Origin: a virus
DNA length: 64,000 nt
Direction: 5' to 3' (one strand)
IMG/VR virus record: IMGVR_UViG_3300045988_079665
Below are positions 5,330 to 60,129 of this stretch, piece by piece. The notes below the pieces were generated by a model. It worked only from the letters and a program-made list of their open reading frames with translations. It had not been told where the DNA came from and made no database searches. Within the stretch, counting starts at the first letter, position 1. Each line of letters opens with the position of its first letter. The position numbers and the translations under genes were made by a program.

Positions 5330-5422
5330 TGGTACTGGCGCTCGGACTCGAACCGAGATTTTGCGGCAATCGACCGCTAAACTGTGTATAGGACAGCTGG
5401 CTTACCATTAACCGACACCAGC
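5330..5422 (-). tRNA. type-II (long variable arm) tRNA with unusual anticodon loop CCUAUAC (apparent anticodon UAU)
   Basis: All four arms pair: acceptor 7 bp, D-stem GGTT/AGCC, anticodon stem GCTGT/ACAGT, T-arm CTCGG-TTCGAGT-CCGAG. It has a 23-nt variable arm with its own stem, discriminator A and an encoded CCA. Confidence 0.8.
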
Positions 5423-22335: not shown

Positions 22336-24924
22336 GTGCCATTAACAGAGTTCTGTTATATACCTTCTGTGGCAACGGATGCTTTTTATACGCCAGAGGA
22401 ACAAGTAATACATAATCGACTTGTCAAGCTATATGCCTTGAGAATGCGCGAGAAGAATGGTCAGAATCGAAAATGGCGTGTTTCATCAATTAACCGTGTT
22501 ATCAAGAAGCATAAAGATGAACTTGTTGAGTTGCTGAGAAAATCGCTTGAAGACAACATTACAAGAGAACTTAATCCAGATGCGGTAACAGATAAGACAA
22601 TTATTAACCTGTTTTGTTCTGAGTTGACTCGTAGCCTTGGCATTAAGACATTTGAGCGAAGTGACAAAATTATTATTGTCAATGTTTTCTTTTTCGAGGT
22701 ATTAAACAGCATCATTCATAATGGATTCAATTACAATGGGGAGCATTATATTTTCTATTCATGTGGCGCTGGCATGATACGTACAAAGCGATTTATGGCT
22801 GTTCGTGAAAAAGATTATTTGGCGGTTGAACAAACCCTCATGTGTGGACTGACCATTGAATCAATCAATGCGCTGGGTGGCATGAATGAAAATAAACTAT
22901 TGAGCTATAAGAGCCTTATGGCATCTGCAACAGATAGAATTACAGACTTTGACATAGACCGTTGCATTATAGTTGATGATTTCGAAATGCCAGTTATGGC
23001 TGAATCAGATTTCATTGATTATACGGATTATAGCATTACGCGTAAAACATCAGAGACAATTATAGCTGAAACTGACGGTTGGGGAATGTGTTGCAAGCCC
23101 GGATTTAAGACACAGATTGTTCGTGCGCCTTGGATAAAAGGACTAGTGTCATACTTTGATTTTAGGGCATGGTTAAAGGAATATTGTCCTGCCGACGATT
23201 GGACTGTAACTGATATATACGGAAGAGAATGGAATATTATTGTGGATGACATTCAGTATATATTAACTAAATCAATGTTTAAGTTGTATAAATTTTATCC
23301 ATCTTGGCTTTGCTACAAGACTAATTTTAAGAGTTATGGTTGTTATTTTGGATGCTGTAAAGTTGAGGAAGATTATATACCAAAGGCGCGAATCAATTAT
23401 CAGATGCTTCAATCTCTAAGTGATATGACGGATAATGAGATTGAGCGGCTTATTGCCAAGACAGCAGATGAAATTAATAGTGTCGGGAGAGATTATCAAA
23501 CTACCATGAGACTATTAGGCGCGACTGAATACAATCAAACAAAATCAGCCATGCAAGAAGCGTTGACAATATATCCAGAATTATTTAAAGATGCGTATAA
23601 CCGGGAGTTGTTGAAACAGACAAAGAAAAGTTTGGTAAAACAAGCAAAAGGTGGCAGATTGAGAATTAACGGCAAATACCTGTTTATTTCGCCTGACCCT
23701 GTGGCATTTTGTGAGTGGTTGTTCAAAGGTGAGCAATTCCCAACTGGTATACTTGAGAATGGAGAGGTTTATACTAATCAATTCAAAGATGGTGACGAGC
23801 TTGATTGTTTGAGAAGCCCACACTTGTATCAGGAACACGCGGTTAGAATCAACAAGCGAAATGGGCTGACCGATAAATGGCTTGGCGGAACAAAATGCAT
23901 ATATTTCAGTGCACACGATATGATTAGTCGTATATTACAACAGGACTTTGATGGGGATATTTCCTTGGTTGTGAAGGATAAGACGTTGACAACTGTGGCA
24001 AAGCGCAATATGCAAGGAATTGTACCGTTATCGTATGACCTCAAAAAAGCACGTGGCGGTATTATTGATGCGGATAGACTGTATGAAGGTGTAAGTACTG
24101 CATATACAGGTGGGTCGATTGGCCCGATTAGTAATGCAATCAGTAAGGTAAAAAATGCTAATGGTGGTAAAATGACTGAGGAGCAAATTAGAGTAATTGC
24201 TTGGCTTACAATGAAGAACAATCAAATTATTGATTTTGCGAAAACGTTATGGAAAAGTGAGCCACCAAAAGAAATTGCAGATATTATAAAAAAATATACA
24301 AAGTCAAAATTGCCTCATTTTTTTATCTATGCCAAAGACAAAGACCCAGATACTCAAGTTGAGTTGCCAAATAATTCCACGATGAATCGTATATCAGCCA
24401 AAATCCCTACTTCTCGAATTCGATATAATAACAAGATTGGGAAATTCGATTGGACGATGTTGATAAATAAATCAGTCGATTATACTACTAGAGAAAATTC
24501 ACCAATCATTGAGCGGTATAATTGGTGGATGTGGAATCAGCGCCGATTTGATTATGGCGATGACCCGCATATCAATGAGGACGATTTATATAAATATCGT
24601 CGCATAGCACAAGATATTGTGGAATATAGCAACGAGCCACTAGATGTTGTGGCAAATAGCCTAGTTGCTTATCTATATACAGTTAAAAAATCAAGCAATA
24701 AGAAAATGCTGTGGGCTTGTTTCGGTTGGACGATTGTAGAGAATTTGAGAACCAATACGGCGCAACTTAATCCAATCTGTCCCATTTGCGGCAAGCGCTT
24801 CAAGCCGCGAGATGTATGTCAGCATTATTGCTCAGAGGAATGTTATAAGAAAGCAGATAATCAGAGGCGTACTGAATCGCGCGAAGCCCCACCTGTCCGC
24901 ACGGGGGACATGTTAAAACAGTAG
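22336..24924 (+). CDS. YonO-like single-subunit two-barrel (multisubunit-RNAP-related) RNA polymerase
   Basis: 862 aa. RSPHLY...(38 aa)...QQDFDGD mirrors the beta-prime RAPTLH...NADFDGD catalytic barrel. Size and phage context match SPbeta YonO, HU-like genes lie downstream as with yonN, and the C-terminus has a zinc ribbon. Confidence 0.7.
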   Translation: MPLTEFCYIPSVATDAFYTPEEQVIHNRLVKLYALRMREKNGQNRKWRVSSINRVIKKHKDELVELLRKSLEDNITRELNPDAVTDKTIINLFCSELTRSLGIKTFERSDKIIIVNVFFFEVLNSIIHNGFNYNGEHYIFYSCGAGMIRTKRFMAVREKDYLAVEQTLMCGLTIESINALGGMNENKLLSYKSLMASATDRITDFDIDRCIIVDDFEMPVMAESDFIDYTDYSITRKTSETIIAETDGWGMCCKPGFKTQIVRAPWIKGLVSYFDFRAWLKEYCPADDWTVTDIYGREWNIIVDDIQYILTKSMFKLYKFYPSWLCYKTNFKSYGCYFGCCKVEEDYIPKARINYQMLQSLSDMTDNEIERLIAKTADEINSVGRDYQTTMRLLGATEYNQTKSAMQEALTIYPELFKDAYNRELLKQTKKSLVKQAKGGRLRINGKYLFISPDPVAFCEWLFKGEQFPTGILENGEVYTNQFKDGDELDCLRSPHLYQEHAVRINKRNGLTDKWLGGTKCIYFSAHDMISRILQQDFDGDISLVVKDKTLTTVAKRNMQGIVPLSYDLKKARGGIIDADRLYEGVSTAYTGGSIGPISNAISKVKNANGGKMTEEQIRVIAWLTMKNNQIIDFAKTLWKSEPPKEIADIIKKYTKSKLPHFFIYAKDKDPDTQVELPNNSTMNRISAKIPTSRIRYNNKIGKFDWTMLINKSVDYTTRENSPIIERYNWWMWNQRRFDYGDDPHINEDDLYKYRRIAQDIVEYSNEPLDVVANSLVAYLYTVKKSSNKKMLWACFGWTIVENLRTNTAQLNPICPICGKRFKPRDVCQHYCSEECYKKADNQRRTESREAPPVRTGDMLKQ

Positions 24925-32018: not shown

Positions 32019-32262
32019 TATTTGCCTATGAAGCGGCTACTATGTTGGTGTGTGGCTGTGGAGGTGCTATTAGGGTTGTGTGGTGAATATACTCCAAGTT
32101 CCAACTTAGGCTTAATTGAAAGCTGAAAATAAAAACACTCAAAAATATCAAACGAGCGGATAGGGAGGACAAGTAGCTCAATGAACTTTGGCATACGTTA
32201 ATGAAGTCCATAATCTAACCGCTCTAATATATAAACAATAAAACAAAGAAAGGAGGTTGAAG

Positions 32263-45151: not shown

Positions 45152-45670
45152 ATGATTATAGCAGGATTAGATGCTAGTACGTCTTCTACTGGATGGTCTA
45201 TATTTGATAATGGGAGGCTCATTGCATATGGCACAATTAAGCCAAAGGGCGATGATTGGCATGATAGAGTAATGGGACTTACTATGGAATTATCAAGCAT
45301 ATTGAGACAGTATAAGCCAACAATTCTCTATGCTGAGGAAGTGCCATTAAAAAAAGGCGCGTCAACCATAGAGAAATTGGGTGCAGTACAAGGCGTAATA
45401 TTAGCATTATGTGCTGGCTTCAAGATAAAGCCATGCTTCTTGATGCCAAGTAAATGGCGTGGCGACCTTAATCTCTTTGATGGCACAAGAGCTGGTCTAC
45501 AAAGGGATGTTCTGAAAAAAAAAGCCATAGAGATGGCGAATGAAGAATTTAGCCTCGATTTGGCATGGGTTGCCCCAAGTAGCAAAAAAAATGAGGATGA
45601 TTGCGCAGAAGGAATCCTCATAGCCTACTCACAAATAAAAAAAGGGAGTGTGATGAATGGCTGGAAGTAA
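45152..45670 (+). CDS. RuvC-like Holliday junction resolvase
   Basis: MIIAGLDASTSSTGWSIF (first catalytic Asp context), ILYAEEVPL (Glu) and a C-terminal acidic NEDDCAEGILIA. Confidence 0.7.
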   Translation: MIIAGLDASTSSTGWSIFDNGRLIAYGTIKPKGDDWHDRVMGLTMELSSILRQYKPTILYAEEVPLKKGASTIEKLGAVQGVILALCAGFKIKPCFLMPSKWRGDLNLFDGTRAGLQRDVLKKKAIEMANEEFSLDLAWVAPSSKKNEDDCAEGILIAYSQIKKGSVMNGWK

Positions 45671-46055
45671 CTCTCAGTACTCGATTCTGGTTGATGTTCA
45701 GCTACAAGAAGAGAGTATAAAGAAGCAACTTAAAGATATACAAAATAGCAAAGACACCAAGTTAAAGATTGGCGTTACAGCAGATGGAGCAGAACGAACC
45801 AAGACAGAGTTAGATGGTGTAACTCAATCTACTAAAAATCTTGATAATTCTACTAAAGATTTGATGTTTACATATCAACAATATCGTCAAGTCTTAGATA
45901 GTGTAATTAATATCACTGAAAAAATGTATCAGTCAGTGAAATCACTGGATGATGCGCAGACAGAACTAAAGAAGGTGTCTGATCTACAAGGCGCGGCACT
46001 TGATAATTATACTAAGAAATTATCTGAATCTGGAAAGACAGTAGCAAGAACCGGT
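45657..46055 (+). CDS. tail tape measure protein, exon 1 of 3
   Basis: The frame continues seamlessly into 46707 after removal of a group-I-like intron; the exon ends in U, paired to the intron guide GCCGG. Confidence 0.7.
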
Positions 46056-46401
46056 AAACCAAATCGGTCTGAGCCGGTATGTACAGATGGTAAATGTGCA
46101 TAAAGAACAGCTCCTAAACCCTTGAAAGCCTAAAGAGCCTTATCACTACAACATGAGGATTAGATATACCTGAGTGTGAATTATTCATTGTTAACAATGA
46201 ATTAGTGCGAAAGCAGAAAGACGATAAGGATGATTCCATGGTTGAAAGACCTAAAGAATCTGTTGCAAATAATGTATAATATTTGGGACAAAAGGGCAGA
46301 TTGGGCGCGAAGTCCTGATGAGGGATGTGTCAACAGAATATACAGAGCGACCCTCCAATAATATAGGGTGAAGAATTATTCGGGAAGGGATTGAAAACCC
46401 C

Positions 46402-46430
46402 TTGACAAATTATTTAAGATGTGATAGTAT
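46402..46430 (+). promoter_or_regulatory. promoter TTGACA-17-TAGTAT inside intron 1
   Basis: Consensus -35, 17-nt spacer and a good -10, followed by the hairpin gtagata/tatctac and an RBS. Confidence 0.6.
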
Positions 46431-46470
46431 GTAGATACTTAAATAATATCTACGAAAGGAAGTATTTATT

Positions 46471-46692
46471 ATGTATCTATCTATTGCGACATTTGTTCTT
46501 ATAGGCCCATTGATTGTCATTTGTGGTTGGGTAATTATCGTTAAGGATATTATTCATTGGATGGAAAAAGACAATGAAGAGGTAGACAAACAGCTGAAAG
46601 AAAAATATAATGTGCGCAATGAAACGCCAGAAGAGGAAGAGGCGCGTGTTGAAGAATACGGGCTTGATGACCAATGGAGTATTCTTAAATAA
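46471..46692 (+). CDS. intron-borne small membrane protein (73 aa) with acidic tail
   Basis: N-terminal TM IATFVLIGPLIVICGWVIIV; GAAAGGAAG RBS; no endonuclease motifs. Confidence 0.55.
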   Translation: MYLSIATFVLIGPLIVICGWVIIVKDIIHWMEKDNEEVDKQLKEKYNVRNETPEEEEARVEEYGLDDQWSILK

Positions 46693-46706
46693 TTTGTAAA
46701 TAACTG

Positions 46707-47258
46707 TCAGAAATGGTTTCTGCGGCTACTATGTTTAGGAAGTCCGGCTTTAATGATTCTGATGCCGTGATACTAGCAAAGGTAGCCGCACAATATCAAA
46801 ACGTAGCGGATACTGCGGTGTCAGCAGAAGATGCCGTCGCATCTATTGTTTCTCAGATTCGCGCATTTGGCAAGGATGCAAGCTTTGCCACTACGGTAAT
46901 CGACGCATATAACGAAGTAGCAAATCGTTTTAGTGTAGGTACTAATGACCTATCTAATGCCATGGAAATTGCATCTAGCGGTATGGCTACTTATGGCAAT
47001 GAATTCTCTGAAATCATTGGGTTAGTTACCGCAGGTACAGAAATCATGTCAGGACGCAGCTCACAGGTTGCTAGAGGCTTATCCACAATTGCATCTCGTA
47101 TTGTAAAAAATCAAGATGCTCTTGCAGAATATGGTATCACAGTAAAAAATGTAGATGGTAGTTTAAAAAGCACATATGACGTGCTTGCTGAATTGAAGCC
47201 AAAATGGGATTCAATGACAGATGCTCAAAGAACTGCTTTAGGCGATACTATAGCTGGT
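46707..47258 (+). CDS. tail tape measure protein, exon 2 of 3
   Basis: Contains a typical TMP core (AQYQNVADT...AYNEVANRFS...LVTAGTEIMSGRSSQVARGL). Confidence 0.75.
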
Positions 47259-48826
47259 TAAATTGATTTAGCCAGAGACAGACTTAATTGACGGGAAAGA
47301 ACAGGGTCGGACTTGTTATCTGTGCATTCGCATGGATGCCTAAGAGCCTTATACACCAACTTATTATGGCGACATAATAGGGGTCTAAACTAATCATTTA
47401 GAGTATGGTAAAAGAGATGAGGATATATGGTCAATCCGCAACGAAGCATCTATTGGAATATAGATGAACGCTCAACGAACATCGAAAGCAACCAATAAGT
47501 ATTGGTAAATGTAACTAACGATAGTTAGAATAAGCCGTTTAACGGACGAAGCGAGTAGAGTAAGCGATAGTGCTAGTCGCTGAAAGAGTCTGCGTATTAC
47601 AGTATTGTAATATAAAATATGTTCTATTCCTATGCGAAAGGCATAGGCAATGATATTATCAAAATGTGATTGATGGAGGAAGGTGAAAACATATCAAGAC
47701 TAACAAAGGAAAAAGTTGATGATATATTGATGTCAAGAGGGCTAAAGCTAAAAGACGATGTATATATTTCAAGTAAATCTAAAATTCACTGTGTAGACGA
47801 ATATGGATATGAGTACAGTTTAACATTAGATAATATACAAGATAAGAGAACGGTTAGTTTTGCTAGATATTCTGTACGAAATCCATATACATTGCACAAT
47901 TTGAATCTATTTATAAAAGAAAATGAGCTTGAATGCGAATTGCTTTCTACAGAGAATCCTAAAAGTGAAAAAGACAAGTTAGAGTTTAGATGCAAATGTG
48001 GCAAACATTATTTTCTATGTTATAATCATCTATTGATGAATCAAAAAGATACTTGCAATGAATGTGGAAGAGCAAGGGAAAGTAGATATACTCCGGAATA
48101 TATAAATAGCATTATATCTGTTTTAGGCTACTCTTTGATACCAAATACTCCTGCGTCATACCGTTCTGTTTGTGTGCAAGATAATGATGGATACAAATAT
48201 AAGGCAACGTTACCAAATTTGATGAATGGTGCAACGCCTATCAAATTTCATAAACTCAATCCATATACAATAGAGAACATGAAGTTGTTTCTAGCTTCTA
48301 ATAAGTATCCAGTTAAACTTTTAGAGCCAGATGATAAAGTGATAGAAGTACGAACAGATTATCTTAAATTTTCTTGTTGCGTATGTGGTTCTGAGTATAT
48401 GGCGACTTGGGGACAAGTGGTAGAAACAGATAGATTTAGATGCGAAAAATGTGTTAAGAAACAATCAAATCTATCATATTATGTTGAACAATATTTAATA
48501 GAAAAAGATGTTGAATATATTAGAGAATTTAGATTTGATGATTGCCGTTACAAAAGAGCATTACCGTTTGATTTTTATTTGCCATTACATAATTATGTTA
48601 TTGAGGTAAATGGCGATCAGCACTATTATGAGAATCCAATGTTCCAACAATCTCTTGACGAAAGACAGAAAATAGATAAAATTAAAGAAAATTATTGTAA
48701 AGAAAATAACATAGGATTTTTAGCAATGCCACGATGGTGGATTCAAAACAAATATGAAGTAAAAAGATATAAACAAGAAATAGATAATATCGTTGGGCGA
48801 GATTAGCACCCTCGTTTAATAAAAAG
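47259..48826 (+). mobile_element. group I intron 2 in the tape measure gene (carries a homing endonuclease ORF)
   Basis: P1: exon ctggU with intron Gccag (47271..47275). P10: intron attgattt (47262..47269) with exon-3 aaatcaat (48829..48836). The last intron base is G (48826). Confidence 0.7.
47673..48806 (+). CDS. intron-encoded putative homing endonuclease (Vsr/DUF559-like PD-(D/E)xK C-terminal domain, CxxC repeats)
   Basis: C-terminal FDFYLPLHNYVIEVNGDQHY fits the restriction-endonuclease-like fold; repeated CKCG/CNECG/CCVCG/CEKC zinc-ribbon modules. Confidence 0.6.
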   Translation: MEEGENISRLTKEKVDDILMSRGLKLKDDVYISSKSKIHCVDEYGYEYSLTLDNIQDKRTVSFARYSVRNPYTLHNLNLFIKENELECELLSTENPKSEKDKLEFRCKCGKHYFLCYNHLLMNQKDTCNECGRARESRYTPEYINSIISVLGYSLIPNTPASYRSVCVQDNDGYKYKATLPNLMNGATPIKFHKLNPYTIENMKLFLASNKYPVKLLEPDDKVIEVRTDYLKFSCCVCGSEYMATWGQVVETDRFRCEKCVKKQSNLSYYVEQYLIEKDVEYIREFRFDDCRYKRALPFDFYLPLHNYVIEVNGDQHYYENPMFQQSLDERQKIDKIKENYCKENNIGFLAMPRWWIQNKYEVKRYKQEIDNIVGRD

Positions 48827-51800
48827 ACAAATCAATATAAAGTCCTTGCTGCTGTTATGCAGAACTTTGAACATGCTACAGATGCAACAAAAGTAGCGCT
48901 CAACTCTGCGGGCTCTGCTGCACATGAAAATGAACGTTATATGGAGAGCCTCGAAGCAAAAGTTCAAGCTGTAAAGGCTGAATTTGAAGATTTCTCTAAT
49001 CGTGTATTGTCAAAAGAATTAGTATCTGGATTCCTTGATGCCGGACAGGCAGTTCTACAATTTGTGAATACAGATTTTGGCGCATCATTGACAAGAATAG
49101 CCGGTGTTGGTACTGCCGTTGCTAGCACACTTGGCTTGATTGGCACAATGGGCGCTAAGTTGGTACTTGTAGCAAAACAGCTGCAAAATGTAGGCGGAGC
49201 AACTGGGTTATTAGGATTGCTAACAACACCAAAAACAGTGCTTGCCATTGGTGGCGTTGTGGCTGCACTTACAGCCATGTTCGAGATAATGAAAGCCATT
49301 GATGGGATTGATGACAAGAAGCTCACATCTCTCAGTGATACATTGCAAACAACAAATGATAAAATAGCTGAAATGTCAGCTGATGGCTCTGAATATGATA
49401 CACTAATTAAAAAGGCGGGCAATCTTACAGAACAAGAAGAGGCGCGACTTGGTATTTTACAAGCACAGTTAGATACTCTAAAGAAGCAATCAGTTGAAGA
49501 AAATAAGGCATATTATACCGAGTGGCAAAAACAACAGCAAAAAGGTGACAGCAGATGGGAATATGGTGAAGGTGATGGTACAGGTACTACATTAACATTT
49601 GAGGGACAGACATATACTTTCTATACAACGACTAAAGCCGAAGAAGCGACACGGAATTTAAGCGCAGCGATTGTTGATTTACAACAAAAATATGACAATG
49701 GAATGTCACAGCAAGAATATATTGCTGGGTTACAAAATATAATTGATGGTGCTCAAGAAACATATGACAATATTCTTGCGTTAAAAGACCTGTATGCAGA
49801 GACCGGGGATGAACAATATAAGCTCACACAACAGCAAGAGATATTTGTTGACATCATTGAGCATCAAAAAGAAGTTGTAGCTGGTCTTGGCGCAGAATAT
49901 GCACAAAATTCTGAGGATATTGGACAATTTGGCGATGCAGTAGAAGAATCAGCCTCTAAGCTAGATACATATGTTTCCGCTCTTGATGAATATCGTGGTG
50001 CAAATGAAGATGCGGCCAGTTCGTCTGAGATTCTTGTCAATTCCCTATTTGACGCAAATGGACAATTGACAGAAGCCGCCAAACAAGCGTTAACCACAGA
50101 TGGTGCTATGGCAAGCATGGCGCAATCATTTATTCAGGCACAGCAAGCACAAGCACAGGCAGATTTTAGCGCATTGATATTGGCTATTAGTAAAGTTGGA
50201 GAAGCGGCTATGGTTACAACCAGCCAATTAGCAACTATGATGGCTATGGCTGGCGTTGATATTTCTGGCGGAGAAACAAGTGCAGTAGCAAGCCTGAGGC
50301 ATCAATATTATCTTGAAACCGGTAAAGGTAGTACATCTGGGTCTAAAATGGTGGGCGGCAAAGTTGAAATGCAGAACACCAAAGAATTTACAGATTGGGC
50401 AGCTTCATATATCCAAAAACAAGCACAAGAAAAATTTGAGAAGCAACAAAAAGAGTATGCTGATAAGCTCAAGCAGATAGGTACATTTGTCCCATCTGGT
50501 GGAGGAGGTGGCGGTGGTTCATCCAGAACCAAGCAAGACCAAGAAGAAGTTAAAGCTCAAACCATCAATACCATTGAAGAACTGCGTGAATATTTAACTG
50601 ATGAATCAACTCGCCTCAAGTTAATTGACCCAGATATTAGTAAATCTGATTTACAGTCAACTCTATCAGAAGTAGCTACTATATATCAATCCTATCAGGA
50701 TTATCTATCTCAGCTCAAGCAACAGGGATTTGATGAAACAAGTGAACAGTATCAACAAGCCGAGGCTGAATTTGCTCAATTTGTTGAAGTATTAAAAACG
50801 CTGTTCACACAACTTGTATCTGGTGGCAAATACAGCGTAGATGAGCTTGTTGGGTATATTGAACAAAATTGTGGCAATCTATCAACCACCATTAGCGGGA
50901 TGCTAAGTGGATTGAAAACAGAGGTTCAATCGACAATAGCATCTATATCTGCTTCTACGCATCAAGCATTTGCTTCTGGCGACGCTAACAGTATTATTGG
51001 CTCGATTGAAAATGCTTGGGATATGATTAGCTCTATGGGAAGCTCTATAGATGAGTCTTATAGCTCTGCCGTAGATGAGATTATAGCAAAAGCTGAGCAA
51101 GAATCAGAGGTTGCCCAAGAAGTAGCGGATAAATACGAATGGCAAAACAAGCTACTTGAGGATAAGATAGCTCTTGAAGAAAAGTTAGAGGCACTTGAAA
51201 AAGCAAAACAGCGGCGCATGCTTGTATATAGCGAAGGTCGCTTCCAATATATGCAAGATGTTGATAAAATATCTTCTGCACAAGCTGAATATCAAGAAAC
51301 ATATAGAGGTGTTGAGCAAAGCCAGATTCAAGGACTTTTGGATAAGATAGGCGAAGAATCATCCGAGTTCTTTGCTGACTATTTTACAAAAGCTAAAGAG
51401 AAAGGATACGGCGACCTTCCAAGTAGTAGCATACAGGCATATCCATCGGTGTTGAAAAAGCACCTAATGGATTATCTTGAAAAGCAAACAAAAGGAACAG
51501 TTCTTGAAGGCGCGGACGAAAGCCAACTAGAAAAGATTTTTGGTTCAGCTATGAAACCGGGCGAAGCATATGCACAACTTGCAGCCGCTGAAGCCGCAAG
51601 ACAAGCTGCCGCAGATGAAAGAGCTGAACGAAAAGCAGAGTTAAAAAAGCAAATTCAGGAAGAAAACGTAAAATATTACGGAGTTCAAACTGACTTTGGT
51701 GAGAAGATATTAAACGCACAAACCCAAGCAGAGGTTGAATATTGGACTAAGCTTAGAGATACCAAGCAACAGATGATTAAGGAATATAGAGAGGCATATG

Positions 51801-52480
51801 GTGATGAAGCCGCCTCAAAATATTTCGGAACAGATGTTAGTAAGCAAGAAGAATGGAAATCTAATAAAGACTTATATAAAGAGGCTTACGAGTCTGGTAG
51901 TGAAGCTTGGAGAACTAAAAAAGCCGAGTTCGAAAGGCAACATTATTTTGACGAAAAAGATAAATATACTGAAAAGAATCCAGACCTCACAGTAGCACAG
52001 TATAATGCTGCGACCGCTGTTGATATGGAAGGATTAGGCGAGCAGAGATTATATGACAGAATATTTAGAGGCTCTATCACTAAGTCTGAGATTCAAGACC
52101 TATATAACAAGTCAAAATCTGACATTTCTAAGGGCTACTTGCTTAATCTAGCATCTGAGATGCATAAAGCTGGTTATCAGGGATATGCTAGAGGAACTAC
52201 AAAAGCTGGCGGTGGCTTATCTCTAGTTGGTGAAAACGGCCCAGAACTAAGAGTGCTGAATCAGGGCGATGGTATATTACCTAACAGCATCACAGATAAT
52301 CTATGGCGATGGGGCTCTATGACTCCTAGTGATATGCTGGCTTCTTTGGCTCAAAAAGCACAGAATTGGGCGCAAACGCTTAATATTAGTAATGTCACAT
52401 TGCCAAATGTACGTGACGCTCAATCGTTCGTAACAGGACTTAGAGAATTGGCGCAACAATATGTGACAAGACGTAGTTAA
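48827..52480 (+). CDS. tail tape measure protein, exon 3 of 3
   Basis: The junction gives ...GDTIAG|TNQYKVLAAVMQNF..., a typical TMP continuation. Long coiled-coil, Gly-run and hydrophobic segments; the spliced product is 1534 aa. Confidence 0.8.
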   Translation, partial: TNQYKVLAAVMQNFEHATDATKVALNSAGSAAHENERYMESLEAKVQAVKAEFEDFSNRVLSKELVSGFLDAGQAVLQFVNTDFGASLTRIAGVGTAVASTLGLIGTMGAKLVLVAKQLQNVGGATGLLGLLTTPKTVLAIGGVVAALTAMFEIMKAIDGIDDKKLTSLSDTLQTTNDKIAEMSADGSEYDTLIKKAGNLTEQEEARLGILQAQLDTLKKQSVEENKAYYTEWQKQQQKGDSRWEYGEGDGTGTTLTFEGQTYTFYTTTKAEEATRNLSAAIVDLQQKYDNGMSQQEYIAGLQNIIDGAQETYDNILALKDLYAETGDEQYKLTQQQEIFVDIIEHQKEVVAGLGAEYAQNSEDIGQFGDAVEESASKLDTYVSALDEYRGANEDAASSSEILVNSLFDANGQLTEAAKQALTTDGAMASMAQSFIQAQQAQAQADFSALILAISKVGEAAMVTTSQLATMMAMAGVDISGGETSAVASLRHQYYLETGKGSTSGSKMVGGKVEMQNTKEFTDWAASYIQKQAQEKFEKQQKEYADKLKQIGTFVPSGGGGGGGSSRTKQDQEEVKAQTINTIEELREYLTDESTRLKLIDPDISKSDLQSTLSEVATIYQSYQDYLSQLKQQGFDETSEQYQQAEAEFAQFVEVLKTLFTQLVSGGKYSVDELVGYIEQNCGNLSTTISGMLSGLKTEVQSTIASISASTHQAFASGDANSIIGSIENAWDMISSMGSSIDESYSSAVDEIIAKAEQESEVAQEVADKYEWQNKLLEDKIALEEKLEALEKAKQRRMLVYSEGRFQYMQDVDKISSAQAEYQETYRGVEQSQIQGLLDKIGEESSEFFADYFTKAKEKGYGDLPSSSIQAYPSVLKKHLMDYLEKQTKGTVLEGADESQLEKIFGSAMKPGEAYAQLAAAEAARQAAADERAERKAELKKQIQEENVKYYGVQTDFGEKILNAQTQAEVEYWTKLRDTKQQMIKEYREAYGDEAASKYFGTDVSKQEEWKSNKDLYKEAYESGSEAWRTKKAEFERQHYFDEKDKYTEKNPDLTVAQYNAATAVDMEGLGEQRLYDRIFRGSITKSEIQDLYNKSKSDISKGYLLNLASEMHKAGYQGYARGTTKAGGGLSLVGENGPELRVLNQGDGILPNSITDNLWRWGSMTPSDMLASLAQKAQNWAQTLNISNVTLPNVRDAQSFVTGLRELAQQYVTRRS

Positions 52481-54874: not shown

Positions 54875-56956
54875 ATGGCATTGAATATCACACAGGATGA
54901 TTATAATATTCTTAGACAATCATATATCAAGCAATATATTAAACTAGACCTATTGGATTTCAACATGAACGTCGTAGATGAACTAAGCGGAAATCTGATT
55001 GGATTATCAGTTACAGTTGATGCTAATGCTGATTTGCGGCGTTCATGTGAATGTAGCTTAGTTGTTACGGACAACTCCTTTGAGATTAAGGCTGGCGGTA
55101 AGATTTTTCTTGACAAATATATTCGTCCGTGGATAGGTTATTTGAATATCCGTACAGGTAATATCCAGTGGTATAATCAGGGTATATATCTAATCAATGC
55201 ACCTAGTTATCAATATGATGCGGCGACATATACATTATCTTTCTCAGGGCTTGACTTGATGTCCAAATTGACAGGGTTGAGAAATGGTGAACTGCCGGGT
55301 GTGCCAACTAAAATACCTATTGGCTCAGATGTGCGTGGTGCTATTATCGCCGCATTGGAATTAGGCGGGTTTAATAAGTATATAGTAAGTGAATGCAAAA
55401 ATGTGGATGATACCATACAAGAAGTACCATATGATATTGAGATAGCACAAGGCGGCACAGTATATGACATTCTCAAAGAGCTATGTGCTATATTGCCACA
55501 ATATCAGATGTATTTTGATACAGATGGCGTATTTCACTATGAGCTAATTCCAACTGGCGCGAACGACCCTGTGCTAATTGATGACGATATGTGGCAGAAT
55601 ATCCTTATCTCAGAATCAGTAAGTACAGATTTTGAGAATGTCAAGAATTATATAGAGGTATATGGACGAAGCCATGATATTGACCATTTCAGCGATAAGA
55701 CAACTGTATCAGGCTCAACTGTGACATTGCATATCCCGTCATTAACACCAACTGAAACAGGTGGCTCACCATTACAAGAATGGACAGAAATTGGCTTTGT
55801 TCCGCCTAGTGATGTAACAGGTGATATCCAGCTTACAATTACAGCTGGTGCTAGTGAAGCAGAGCCTACCACATTAGGCACATATAAATTTGTCAATAAA
55901 GATGGCTCATATGTAAACAAGCTTGAAAAAGACAAATATTATGTTGGACAATTCCAAGCGGACGACACATTTTTAGACCTAGGACAAGACCAAGCATATG
56001 GAATAGCATATGATAATAACCCAGACAGCCCATTTTATGTGGGTGACCCTGTTGGTTCTAGCTCCGTTGGTATTATTAGACATGTGTGCTATAGTGGAGA
56101 ATATGATAATATCACATCTAATGATTTAGCCAAGCAGAGAGCTGACCTTGAATTATATTGGAGCTGTCGGCTTAATGATAGCATATCATTAGCTACTATA
56201 CCAATTCCATGGTTAGATGTCAACATTATTATGAGCCATGCCATGAAATTGCAAGGCGACCCAAAGAAATATATGATACAGTCATATAATGCAACATACG
56301 GTGAATCAAATAGTATGACCATATCAGCGTCAAGTTGGTATCCATATTATCTTGTAGATGGAACACAAGAGCCGGTTGAGCTAGAATATATTATGTCAAC
56401 TGGAACACAATTCATCAGCACGGGTTTTATCCCTAATAATAATACGCGTGTCCAGATGACATTAGCAATACTTAATGATGTTAGCGGATATTTATTTGGC
56501 TCACATTATACTAACGAGAAAGAAAAGCAGGAAGACCCAGATACATACACTTATTATTCATTACAATATGATAAGGGTGTGTTTACAATGGGATACGACC
56601 AAGAAAATACCAAGACGTTGACTATAGAGCCAACTTTTAATCGTATTACGGTTGACATGAATAAAAACCAGCTTACTGTCAATGGACAATCTATTCAGTA
56701 TGATGCAAAAGAATTCAAGATGAAAAATAATATGGCGCTATTGACTTATACTAAAGACGGATTCTTCCAGACTCCCTGTTTGTCATCATTTTTATATTCA
56801 TGTAAGATATGGGACGATGGTGTATTGATTAGGGATTATATTCCATATCAAAATAAATTGGGCGATGTCGGATTATGGGATAAAGTGCATAGCGTATTTT
56901 ATGGCAATTTTGGCACGGGTAAATTTATTGCTGGGCCAATTGTTAAAAAAGAATGA
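54875..56956 (+). CDS. large tail-tip/baseplate protein (693 aa, Tal-like)
   Basis: Size and position only. Confidence 0.45.
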   Translation: MALNITQDDYNILRQSYIKQYIKLDLLDFNMNVVDELSGNLIGLSVTVDANADLRRSCECSLVVTDNSFEIKAGGKIFLDKYIRPWIGYLNIRTGNIQWYNQGIYLINAPSYQYDAATYTLSFSGLDLMSKLTGLRNGELPGVPTKIPIGSDVRGAIIAALELGGFNKYIVSECKNVDDTIQEVPYDIEIAQGGTVYDILKELCAILPQYQMYFDTDGVFHYELIPTGANDPVLIDDDMWQNILISESVSTDFENVKNYIEVYGRSHDIDHFSDKTTVSGSTVTLHIPSLTPTETGGSPLQEWTEIGFVPPSDVTGDIQLTITAGASEAEPTTLGTYKFVNKDGSYVNKLEKDKYYVGQFQADDTFLDLGQDQAYGIAYDNNPDSPFYVGDPVGSSSVGIIRHVCYSGEYDNITSNDLAKQRADLELYWSCRLNDSISLATIPIPWLDVNIIMSHAMKLQGDPKKYMIQSYNATYGESNSMTISASSWYPYYLVDGTQEPVELEYIMSTGTQFISTGFIPNNNTRVQMTLAILNDVSGYLFGSHYTNEKEKQEDPDTYTYYSLQYDKGVFTMGYDQENTKTLTIEPTFNRITVDMNKNQLTVNGQSIQYDAKEFKMKNNMALLTYTKDGFFQTPCLSSFLYSCKIWDDGVLIRDYIPYQNKLGDVGLWDKVHSVFYGNFGTGKFIAGPIVKKE

Positions 56957-59811: not shown

Positions 59812-60129
59812 ATGGATTATACTCAGATTATTGTTAGTGTTATTAGTCTTATCGTTGCTGTTCTTACTGGTGTTCTTGTACCATATCTCAAGCAGAAATA
59901 TGGTGAAACTAAGATTGCCCAGACACAGCAATATGTAGATATTGCAGTCAGAGCCGCAGAACAACTGTTCAAGACCGAACAAGCACAAGAGAAAAAGGCA
60001 TATGTTGTCAATTACCTGTCTGAGCGTGGCATTAAGTTCGATACGGCTACTATTGAGAATATGATTGAATCCAGCGTCCTACTGCTCCACAATGAGCTAT
60101 ATGGCACTAAGCAAGAGGAGAATAAATAA
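59812..60129 (+). CDS. holin (LL-H-like)
   Basis: N-terminal TM IIVSVISLIVAVLTGVLVPYL followed by AVRAAEQLF...; lies directly upstream of the lysin. Confidence 0.6.
   Translation: MDYTQIIVSVISLIVAVLTGVLVPYLKQKYGETKIAQTQQYVDIAVRAAEQLFKTEQAQEKKAYVVNYLSERGIKFDTATIENMIESSVLLLHNELYGTKQEENK

Follow-up and report, generated by a model that had tools for sequence, protein, structure and literature searches.

A predicted group I intron in a phage tape-measure gene carries a promoter and a small membrane-protein gene in its 3′-terminal loop

A 64,000-nucleotide (nt) stretch of viral DNA (IMG/VR record IMGVR_UViG_3300045988_079665; the whole stretch is called the window below) contains a gene for a phage tape-measure protein that is interrupted twice. 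Phage group I introns are usually viewed as selfish elements that carry nothing but a homing endonuclease (or, in IStrons, a transposase), and the first interruption, at 46056-46706, raises the question of whether such an intron can be kept while it carries something else. The original prediction described it as a group I intron with its own promoter and a membrane-protein gene in place of a homing endonuclease. Comparison with related metagenomic phages indicates that 46056-46706 is a group I intron (intron 1), as judged by splice-site rules, restoration of the reading frame and covarying helices, so this part of the prediction was borne out. We consider it likely that the architecture described here and the status of its 73-amino-acid (aa) open reading frame (ORF), ORF73, as a real gene hold together. 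The pieces of the tape-measure gene are as follows.

45657..46055, plus strand: exon 1, 133 codons, ending in ACCGGT, with a TMP_3 match
46056..46706, plus strand: intron 1 (group I), 651 nt, last base G46706
46707..47258, plus strand: exon 2, starting with TCAGAA, with a PhageMin_Tail domain
47259-48826: intron 2 (group I) of the same gene, with an ORF for a 378-aa HNH-type endonuclease (47670-48806, phrog_559)
48827-52480: exon 3, the third piece of the gene

The frame of exon 1 runs into intron 1 and reaches a stop codon (TAA, 46101-46103) within the paired element P2 listed below. At the predicted spliced junction the end of exon 1 (...ACCGGU) is followed by UCAGAAAUGG... of exon 2, and the joined exons read ...GKTVARTG up to the junction and SEMVSAATMF... 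after it. This protein aligns without gaps across the junction with its counterpart in Enterocloster phage PMBT24, a tape-measure protein encoded without interruption (ARTA before the junction, DEMV after it). In three uninterrupted homologues of about 30% identity, ACYGGT is continuous with TCRGANATG. No separate ribosome-binding site precedes exon 2. Within the insert the following elements of the group I fold were assigned, all on the plus strand.

46068..46078: internal guide sequence, UCUGA (46068-72) for P10 and GCCGGU (46073-78) for P1
46079..46101: P2 hairpin, AUGUACA/UGUGCAU, with double changes in four of seven pairs
46110-13 with 46345-48: P3, GCUC with GAGC, with double changes in three of four pairs
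46119-21 with 46303-05: P4, 3 base pairs (bp), inside P3
46128-31 with 46294-97: P5, 4 bp, with a large extension, inside P3
46306-09 with 46326-29: P6, inside P3
46313-25: P6a, inside P3
46334-41: 5′ strand of P7, with bulged A46335
46350-69: P8 hairpin, followed by J8/7, GAAGA
46377-82: 3′ strand of P7, UAUUCG, forming a pseudoknot with P3
46385..46403: P9 hairpin, AAGGG/CCCUU, at which the ribozyme core ends

At the 5′ splice site the end of exon 1, ACCGGU (46050-55), pairs with GCCGGU (46073-78) to give P1, with U46055.G46073 at the splice site itself. One relative (L035) shows a compensatory change of C-G to U-A in this helix (ACUGGU/GCCAGU). P10 is formed by UCAGA of exon 2 (46707-11) and UCUGA (46068-72), and all of its positions are paired in the 16 sequences compared. 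The splice-site pair is U.G in 13 of these 16 relatives, C-G in two and G-C in one. In the last three (L030, L039 and L044) exon 1 ends in GGC or GGG, so that a Watson-Crick pair replaces U.G; either their intron 1 splices poorly or such a pair is tolerated at the 5′ splice site.

Twenty distinct copies of intron 1 were gathered from related metagenomic phages, and covariation was analyzed in an alignment of 16 distinct mini-introns from which the ORF loop had been removed. The structure scored had 77 pairs in 17 helices, comprising P1, P10, P2, P3, P4, P5 with its extension, P6, P6a, P7, P8 and P9. Pairing was preserved in 96.8% of the cells (77 pairs in 16 introns) and double changes were seen at 31 of the 77 pairs, values that none of 500 shuffles reached. 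When the partners were slid by one to three columns, pairing fell to 27-43% and only two to five pairs showed double changes. The helices that covary are P2, P3, P6a, P7, P8, P9 and the P5 extension. P7 itself has two double changes (C-G to U-A and A-U to G-C), and a bulged A or C at 46335 stands beside a constant G-C pair. An earlier candidate for the 3′ strand of P7, GUAUUCUU at about 46679-46686 near the end of the ORF, was rejected, since relatives carry uncompensated changes there; 46377-82 covaries instead. For P4, RNAalifold proposed CCCUU/AAGGG, which competes with CCC/GGG; there is covariation in neither model, and in the most diverged intron (L044) CCC/GGG together with GCCU/GGGC fits better than the RNAalifold alternative. 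One copy (L043:3387-4085) has an insertion of about 100 nt in the P5 extension and a 31-nt hairpin, with a second TTGACA, in the P8 loop.

Intron 2 of the same gene is a live presence/absence polymorphism. It is missing from four near-identical phages (L005, L006, L008 and L009), where a fused exon 2+3 of 1399 aa reads ...GDTIAG before the junction and TNQYKV after it; three others (L007, L011 and L013) have the intron without the ORF, and in further phages it has an ORF of 340 or 377 aa. Presence and absence fall precisely on the predicted boundaries. We had initially placed the end of intron 2 at 48842; the intron-less allele ruled this out, and exon 3 begins at 48827.

The core of intron 1 is followed by a terminal domain made up of the last approximately 300 nt of the intron, and the small ORF lies there. 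Its features are listed below.

46402..46430, plus strand: promoter of the sigma-70/sigma-A type, -35 TTGACA (46402-46407), 17-nt spacer, TG-extended -10 TAGTAT
46405..46419, plus strand: 5′ strand of a closing helix, ACAAAUUAUUUAAGA, overlapping the -35 and the spacer
46422-46430, plus strand: -10 with its TG extension, TGATAGTAT
46431-46453, plus strand: hairpin, GTAGAT/ATCTAC, 6 bp, AT-rich, -5.6 kcal/mol
near 46437, plus strand: predicted transcription start, downstream of the 5′ strand of the closing helix
46455..46462, plus strand: Shine-Dalgarno site, AAAGGAAG, 8 nt before the ATG
46471..46692, plus strand: ORF73, 73 aa, stop TAA at 46690-46692, predicted N-out/C-in membrane protein
46683..46697, plus strand: 3′ strand of the closing helix, UCUUAAAUAAUUUGU, ending 9 nt before the 3′ splice site

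The closing helix has 15 perfect bp (-13.9 kcal/mol; the maximum among 20000 shuffles of both stretches was 12 bp) and bounds a loop of 263 nt. Such a helix was found in all 20 introns, with 9-15 perfect bp and 5-16 nt before the terminal G. Six different sequences make up these helices, at positions somewhat shifted between introns, and all are perfect, which amounts to compensation that arose repeatedly and independently. On this comparative evidence the helix loops out the -10, the 5′ untranslated region (UTR) and the ORF, and sets the 3′ splice site beside the core. The 3′ strand of the helix takes in the final two sense codons of ORF73 as well as its stop, which explains why only 14 nt separate the stop (46690-46692) from the last base of the intron (G46706), a gap that had been given correctly. 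In seven of the eight types of intron 1 distinguished by the ORFs they carry (their cargo), the stop codon lies inside or adjoins the 3′ strand of the helix. The ORF had been placed inside the intron, and it is there; it sits, however, not within the core but in the 3′-terminal loop that the helix closes.

Ahead of ORF73 the original prediction had listed a TTGACA-17-TAGTAT promoter, a hairpin and a ribosome-binding site. The promoter, at 46402..46430, is well supported. In the 64-kilobase (kb) window the pattern TTGACA-N14-TGnTAnnnT occurs 14 times, against 0.07 expected; 12 of the 14 copies are in the early region at 2-28 kb, and seven share the extended TTGACAAAT. In the late structural region the copy in the intron is the sole plus-strand promoter match. 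It is kept without insertions or deletions in each of the 20 introns, the -35, the 17-nt spacing, the TG and positions 1, 2 and 6 of the -10 (T, A and T) being invariant. The spacer, 5′ UTR and ORF differ completely between cargo types, and every variant has a Shine-Dalgarno site ahead of its start codon, as the window copy does at 46455-46462. As far as such comparison can tell, the intron promoter is very probably functional. The hairpin is present at 46431-46453, but it is not conserved in relatives: it is partly broken in diverged ORF73 alleles and absent from other cargo types, and we dropped it as a regulatory element for this reason. Elsewhere in the window the signature TTGACA[AAT]-N-TGnTATAAT was found at 2048-28378 and at 56195-56223. 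The last of these copies (56223-56195, minus strand) lies inside a 693-aa late ORF (54875-56956) and would be an antisense promoter in the late region.

ORF73 has one strongly hydrophobic segment, residues 5-23 (mean Kyte-Doolittle value 2.65), in agreement with the single transmembrane helix of the prediction; the helix is predicted at about residues 2-24. The 49-residue tail contains 16 D+E and 8 K+R, and is very acidic as had been said; it is charged and predicted to be helical, and the protein has the C-terminal motif EEYGLDDQW. Fifteen close homologues, 82-99% identical, come from human and pig gut metagenomes, and all are 73 aa long apart from one 43-aa fragment. Variation among seven distinct alleles is three-periodic (11, 6 and 26 variable sites at the first, second and third codon positions), with a ratio of nonsynonymous to synonymous variation (pN/pS) of 0.13-0.31. 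In two other cargo types the ratio is 0.02-0.23 (type B) and 0.11-0.16 (type C), with pS of 0.13-0.44 in informative pairs. By these measures ORF73 is a real gene under purifying selection.

The prediction had suggested a survey of homologous introns for the same cargo. A promoter, a closing helix and one or two small membrane-protein ORFs are present in all 20 copies, but the ORF sequences differ by type. The cargo ORFs of the other types are very different from ORF73, 60-110 aa long and sometimes two in tandem. They share a plan with it: at the N terminus one to three hydrophobic helices, the first of them preceded by no charged residue, K/R right after the last, and then a charged tail. Since this K/R is found in every type, the prediction is that the tail faces the cytoplasm. 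The proteins end in a motif of the form [DE]-x-[WYF]-G-hydrophobic (EEYGLDD, NEWGLDD, DDWGFIE, NDYGIYD and NDWGYIR), and the last 10 or so residues are conserved yet predicted to be disordered. Net charge ranges from -8 to +2, so that "very acidic" fits the window copy and not the whole family. A profile search returned 124 clusters, all of 40-110 aa and none named, and a library-wide hidden Markov model search added only two further representatives at the 50% level. All contexts examined had the same order: the RuvC gene, exon 1 of the tape-measure gene, a single small ORF or a pair of them, and exon 2. Neither ORF73 nor 12 other cargo proteins matched a homing endonuclease in Pfam or PHROG, and none was found in any copy of intron 1 examined, in agreement with the original prediction; within intron 1 there is also no further ORF of at least 40 aa conserved in relatives. 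Searches of the region and of ORF73 with blastn and tblastn against the phage collection gave no match. Judged by sequence comparison, the cargo proteins form a family that is new and uncharacterised and whose C-terminal motif is conserved.

Several points weigh against this interpretation. The Rfam group I model (Intron_gpI) gave no match, either at its gathering score or at E≤10, and the defining group I features were therefore tested directly. No variation occurs in P4 or P5, which were placed by position, and the P4-P6 assignment thus lacks independent support. In the close clade no intron-less allele of site 1 was found. The -35 and spacer overlap P9 or the closing helix, and their conservation may therefore partly reflect constraint on the RNA. 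No terminator was found between ORF73 and exon 2. Finally, splicing, the transcription start and translation are all inferred. The silence of Rfam and the lack of an intron-less allele would also fit an insert that does not splice at all, the tape-measure protein being made as separate polypeptides or the insert being another mobile element. That explanation has to contend with a junction that is exact and in frame, with P1, P10 and a terminal G that obey group I rules, with a pseudoknotted core that covaries, with the missing ribosome-binding site of exon 2 and with the exact boundaries of intron 2 in near-identical phages. A second objection is that the ORF has no function, and that ORF and promoter are conserved merely through structural constraint on the RNA of the 3′ domain, given that the closing helix overlaps both the -35/spacer and, with its 3′ strand, the end of the ORF. 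Constraint of this kind is at odds with three-periodic variation and with pN/pS far below 1 in three cargo types, and also with the retention of protein architecture and C-terminal motif by unrelated nucleotide sequences. The -10 and the Shine-Dalgarno site, moreover, are in the unpaired loop, and the helix covers differing parts of the -35 in differing types. Both explanations are already disfavoured, and we regard each as highly improbable.

Intron 1, which encodes no endonuclease, is present at site 1 in all 21 IMG/VR relatives and in all other contigs, even where the exon 1 proteins are only 35-52% identical. Its core retains 88-92% nt identity where the last 300 nt of exon 1 retain 54-74% and the first 300 nt of exon 2 retain 59-81%. 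Variants of P2 and P7 occur in all four combinations within one cargo type, which indicates frequent recombination between introns. Relatives L028-L048 (IMG/VR) show up to six interruptions of the tape-measure gene, following residues 104, 133, 204, 238, 251 and 317 (numbered as in the window protein), and many introns at the sites other than 133 contain endonuclease genes; these neighbours are a few hundred bases from intron 1. The endonuclease-free intron 1 probably persists by vertical descent together with recombination or co-conversion, and we infer that double-strand breaks made by the endonucleases of neighbouring introns co-convert intron 1 and its cassette. A load of up to six sites is unusually dense for one gene. 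Many of the short metagenomic contigs with diverged ORF73 (L015-L027) break 84-400 nt upstream of ORF73, inside the core; a conserved core common to co-occurring phage variants may collapse their assemblies.

Another explanation would make the cargo a toxin-like peptide that penalises phages which lose the intron (addiction), or that otherwise serves the intron and not the phage. An endonuclease-free intron in every clade member examined, better conserved than the exons, is in keeping with this, and a single hydrophobic helix with a charged tail resembles type I toxins. However, no antitoxin RNA or protein was identified, the antisense promoter-like sites being only 9/12 matches, and many type I toxins have basic tails whereas most cargo tails are acidic. 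Addiction seems unlikely to us. The retention of an endonuclease-free intron across a clade of human, pig and Hadza gut phages, always with a promoter-driven membrane-protein gene that is under purifying selection, suggests that an intron may be kept for the sake of a useful gene within it. The loop of a ribozyme could then offer accessory genes an insulated place in a late operon that is itself essential.

Intron ORFs with promoters of their own, expressed independently of the host gene and looped out of the ribozyme, are familiar from phage T4, where they encode the homing endonucleases I-TevI, II and III that move the intron. The T4 group I introns of td, nrdB and nrdD/sunY with their ORFs were reportedly described by Gott et al. 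in Genes Dev in 1988 under the title 'Genes within genes', and the remote 3′ splice junction of sunY is said to have been described by Michel et al. in the same journal in 1992. The arrangement in nrdD/sunY is alike: the core comes first and the ORF after it, and the remote 3′ splice site is drawn in by a long-range pairing. Unlike the T4 introns, the present one encodes a 73-aa membrane protein, and no copy of it carries an endonuclease. Phage morons, which are autonomous promoter-ORF-terminator units in late operons, offer another parallel, and the cargo had been called moron-like. A host-type promoter and a small accessory gene amid a late structural operon agree with that description; but the unit is inside a ribozyme loop and not between genes, and, as no terminator was found between ORF and exon 2, it would not be a textbook moron. 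The nearest terminator-like hairpin, followed by a T-run, is on the plus strand at 46829-46844, inside exon 2 and 123 nt past the intron, and could end the transcripts from the intron promoter.

Group I introns that hold non-endonuclease cargo in their 3′ part are exemplified by the IStrons CdISt1 (Clostridioides difficile) and BcISt1 (PMC3984707, which also mentions the sunY ORF; PMC4227781). IStrons, which occur in Firmicutes, likewise have a 5′ group I core with non-endonuclease genes embedded 3′ of it. Their cargo, however, is an IS200/IS605 transposon (TnpA and TnpB) that confers mobility, while intron 1 has one small membrane-protein gene and a promoter. No transposase match was found in the 300-nt 3′ part of intron 1, with its one 73-codon ORF; ends of insertion sequences were neither looked for nor seen. 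A closer counterpart in location is provided by the group I introns TMP-IVS1-3 of Bacillus cereus-group prophages (Tourasse and Kolsto 2008, PMC2504315). According to the parts of that description available to us, these also interrupt the tape-measure gene at several sites, are mostly endonuclease-free and have a core that is more conserved, and the spread of immobile introns between phages poses the same open puzzle there (PMC2504315). Compared by description only, and on the same parts of the source, they differ in being IA1/IA2 introns that are ORF-less or endonuclease-bearing; promoter-driven membrane-protein cargo goes unmentioned in those parts (PMC2504315). In the literature we found no description of a phage group I intron whose constant passenger is a promoter-driven gene for a small membrane protein. 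ORFs shorter than 120 aa are not considered in a recent intron database, which assigns a cargo label only to endonuclease matches (PMC11835236), and small cargo therefore remains unseen.

As to function, ORF73 would be a membrane-anchored accessory protein. Host RNA polymerase would transcribe it from the promoter inside the intron, whether or not the late tail operon is transcribed; this transcript would begin downstream of the 5′ strand of the closing helix and so lack the helix. In the late pre-mRNA ORF73 would be readable too, and ribosomes at its stop codon would open the helix. The product would be an accessory factor anchored in the host membrane, with its cytoplasmic C-terminal motif binding a conserved partner that is either cytoplasmic or entering. 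A Pfam search with an 862-aa ORF at 22336-24924 returned nothing, and its label as a YonO-type RNA polymerase was not confirmed; should it be such a polymerase for late genes, the intron promoter would be clearly uncoupled from the late operon.

The function that we tentatively prefer is to exclude related phages, or to compete with them, at the step of DNA entry, in which the membrane is crossed by the tape-measure protein itself. According to Bebeacua et al. in 2013, as reported, the tape-measure protein is the target of Ltp. Lactococcal Sie2009 is another superinfection-exclusion membrane protein. Ltp, from S. thermophilus phage TP-J34, is a superinfection-exclusion protein that blocks DNA entry (PMC3952083). 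Exclusion proteins of this kind resemble ORF73 in being small, phage-encoded and membrane-associated, with a promoter of their own and a functional link to the tape measure. Ltp differs in being an external lipoprotein, while the bulk of ORF73 is predicted to be cytoplasmic; the two have no sequence similarity, and function is compared by analogy. Known exclusion proteins mostly act outside the membrane, which tells against this choice of function given the cytoplasmic tail predicted here. Two further results lend no functional support: AlphaFold predicts for ORF73 a helix at 2-45, another at 53-63 and a disordered end that bears the motif, with a predicted local distance difference test score (pLDDT) of 68, and Pfam and PHROG searches with ORF73 and the 12 other cargo proteins gave nothing above threshold. 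Sub-threshold matches (PF25184, YxzE-like, E=0.015; phrog_26573, E=0.004) were not used.

Nearly as likely as exclusion is a role in host takeover or anti-defence. In this case the protein would be expressed early, and the C-terminal acidic-aromatic motif of its membrane-anchored tail would trap or misplace a conserved host protein of the cytoplasm, such as a component of division, repair or defence. The intron promoter is of the same class as those of the early region, the tail is predicted to be cytoplasmic in all types, the conserved, disordered last 10 or so residues look like a short binding motif, and purifying selection within each type is strong. Such a role leaves the tie to one intron site unexplained, and the cargo has no homology to known inhibitor or anti-defence families in Pfam or PHROG (PADLOC was not searched). 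We think it improbable, by comparison, that the cargo times lysis as a holin or antiholin, although small size, one to three membrane helices, a charged C-terminal tail, extreme diversity and tandem pairs in some introns would suit such a protein. A primary role in lysis is made less likely by a canonical holin encoded elsewhere (59812-60129, phrog_6918, E=5e-24). Moreover, none of the 13 cargo proteins matches a holin family, and constitutive expression of a holin from a host-type promoter would be hazardous. Tests of exclusion, toxicity and partner binding can be applied directly to the cargo family.

A bolder extension of the preferred exclusion function, to which we give rather less credence than to exclusion itself, is that the intron is a dedicated carrier, swappable by recombination, for diversifying promoter-driven membrane proteins in phage-phage exclusion when the tape measure mediates DNA entry, and that ribosomes on the cargo in late pre-mRNA gate tape-measure splicing. 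Gating is suggested by the position of the ORF stop within the helix that positions the 3′ splice site; if true, it would couple accessory-gene expression to tail production. The complete relatives encode a tyrosine recombinase and no large serine recombinase, and the nearest cultured relative, whose tape-measure protein is 36% identical, is virulent (PMC11035940).

Two minor observations concern endonuclease genes near related tape-measure genes. In one close relative a free-standing gene for a GIY-YIG endonuclease (L011:1462-2187) is inserted after the RuvC gene and immediately ahead of exon 1 of the intron-bearing tape-measure gene. In a human-faecal phage scaffold from GenBank (L002, MT838326.1, 3441-4448) a related tape-measure gene is broken after ...LVTAGTEILTGQA; the insert carries a related endonuclease ORF, and exon 1 contains an apparent frameshift. 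Elsewhere in the window, matches at the Rfam gathering score were obtained for a tRNA with a long variable arm (5333-5422, minus strand) and for a drum RNA (32023-32143, plus strand).

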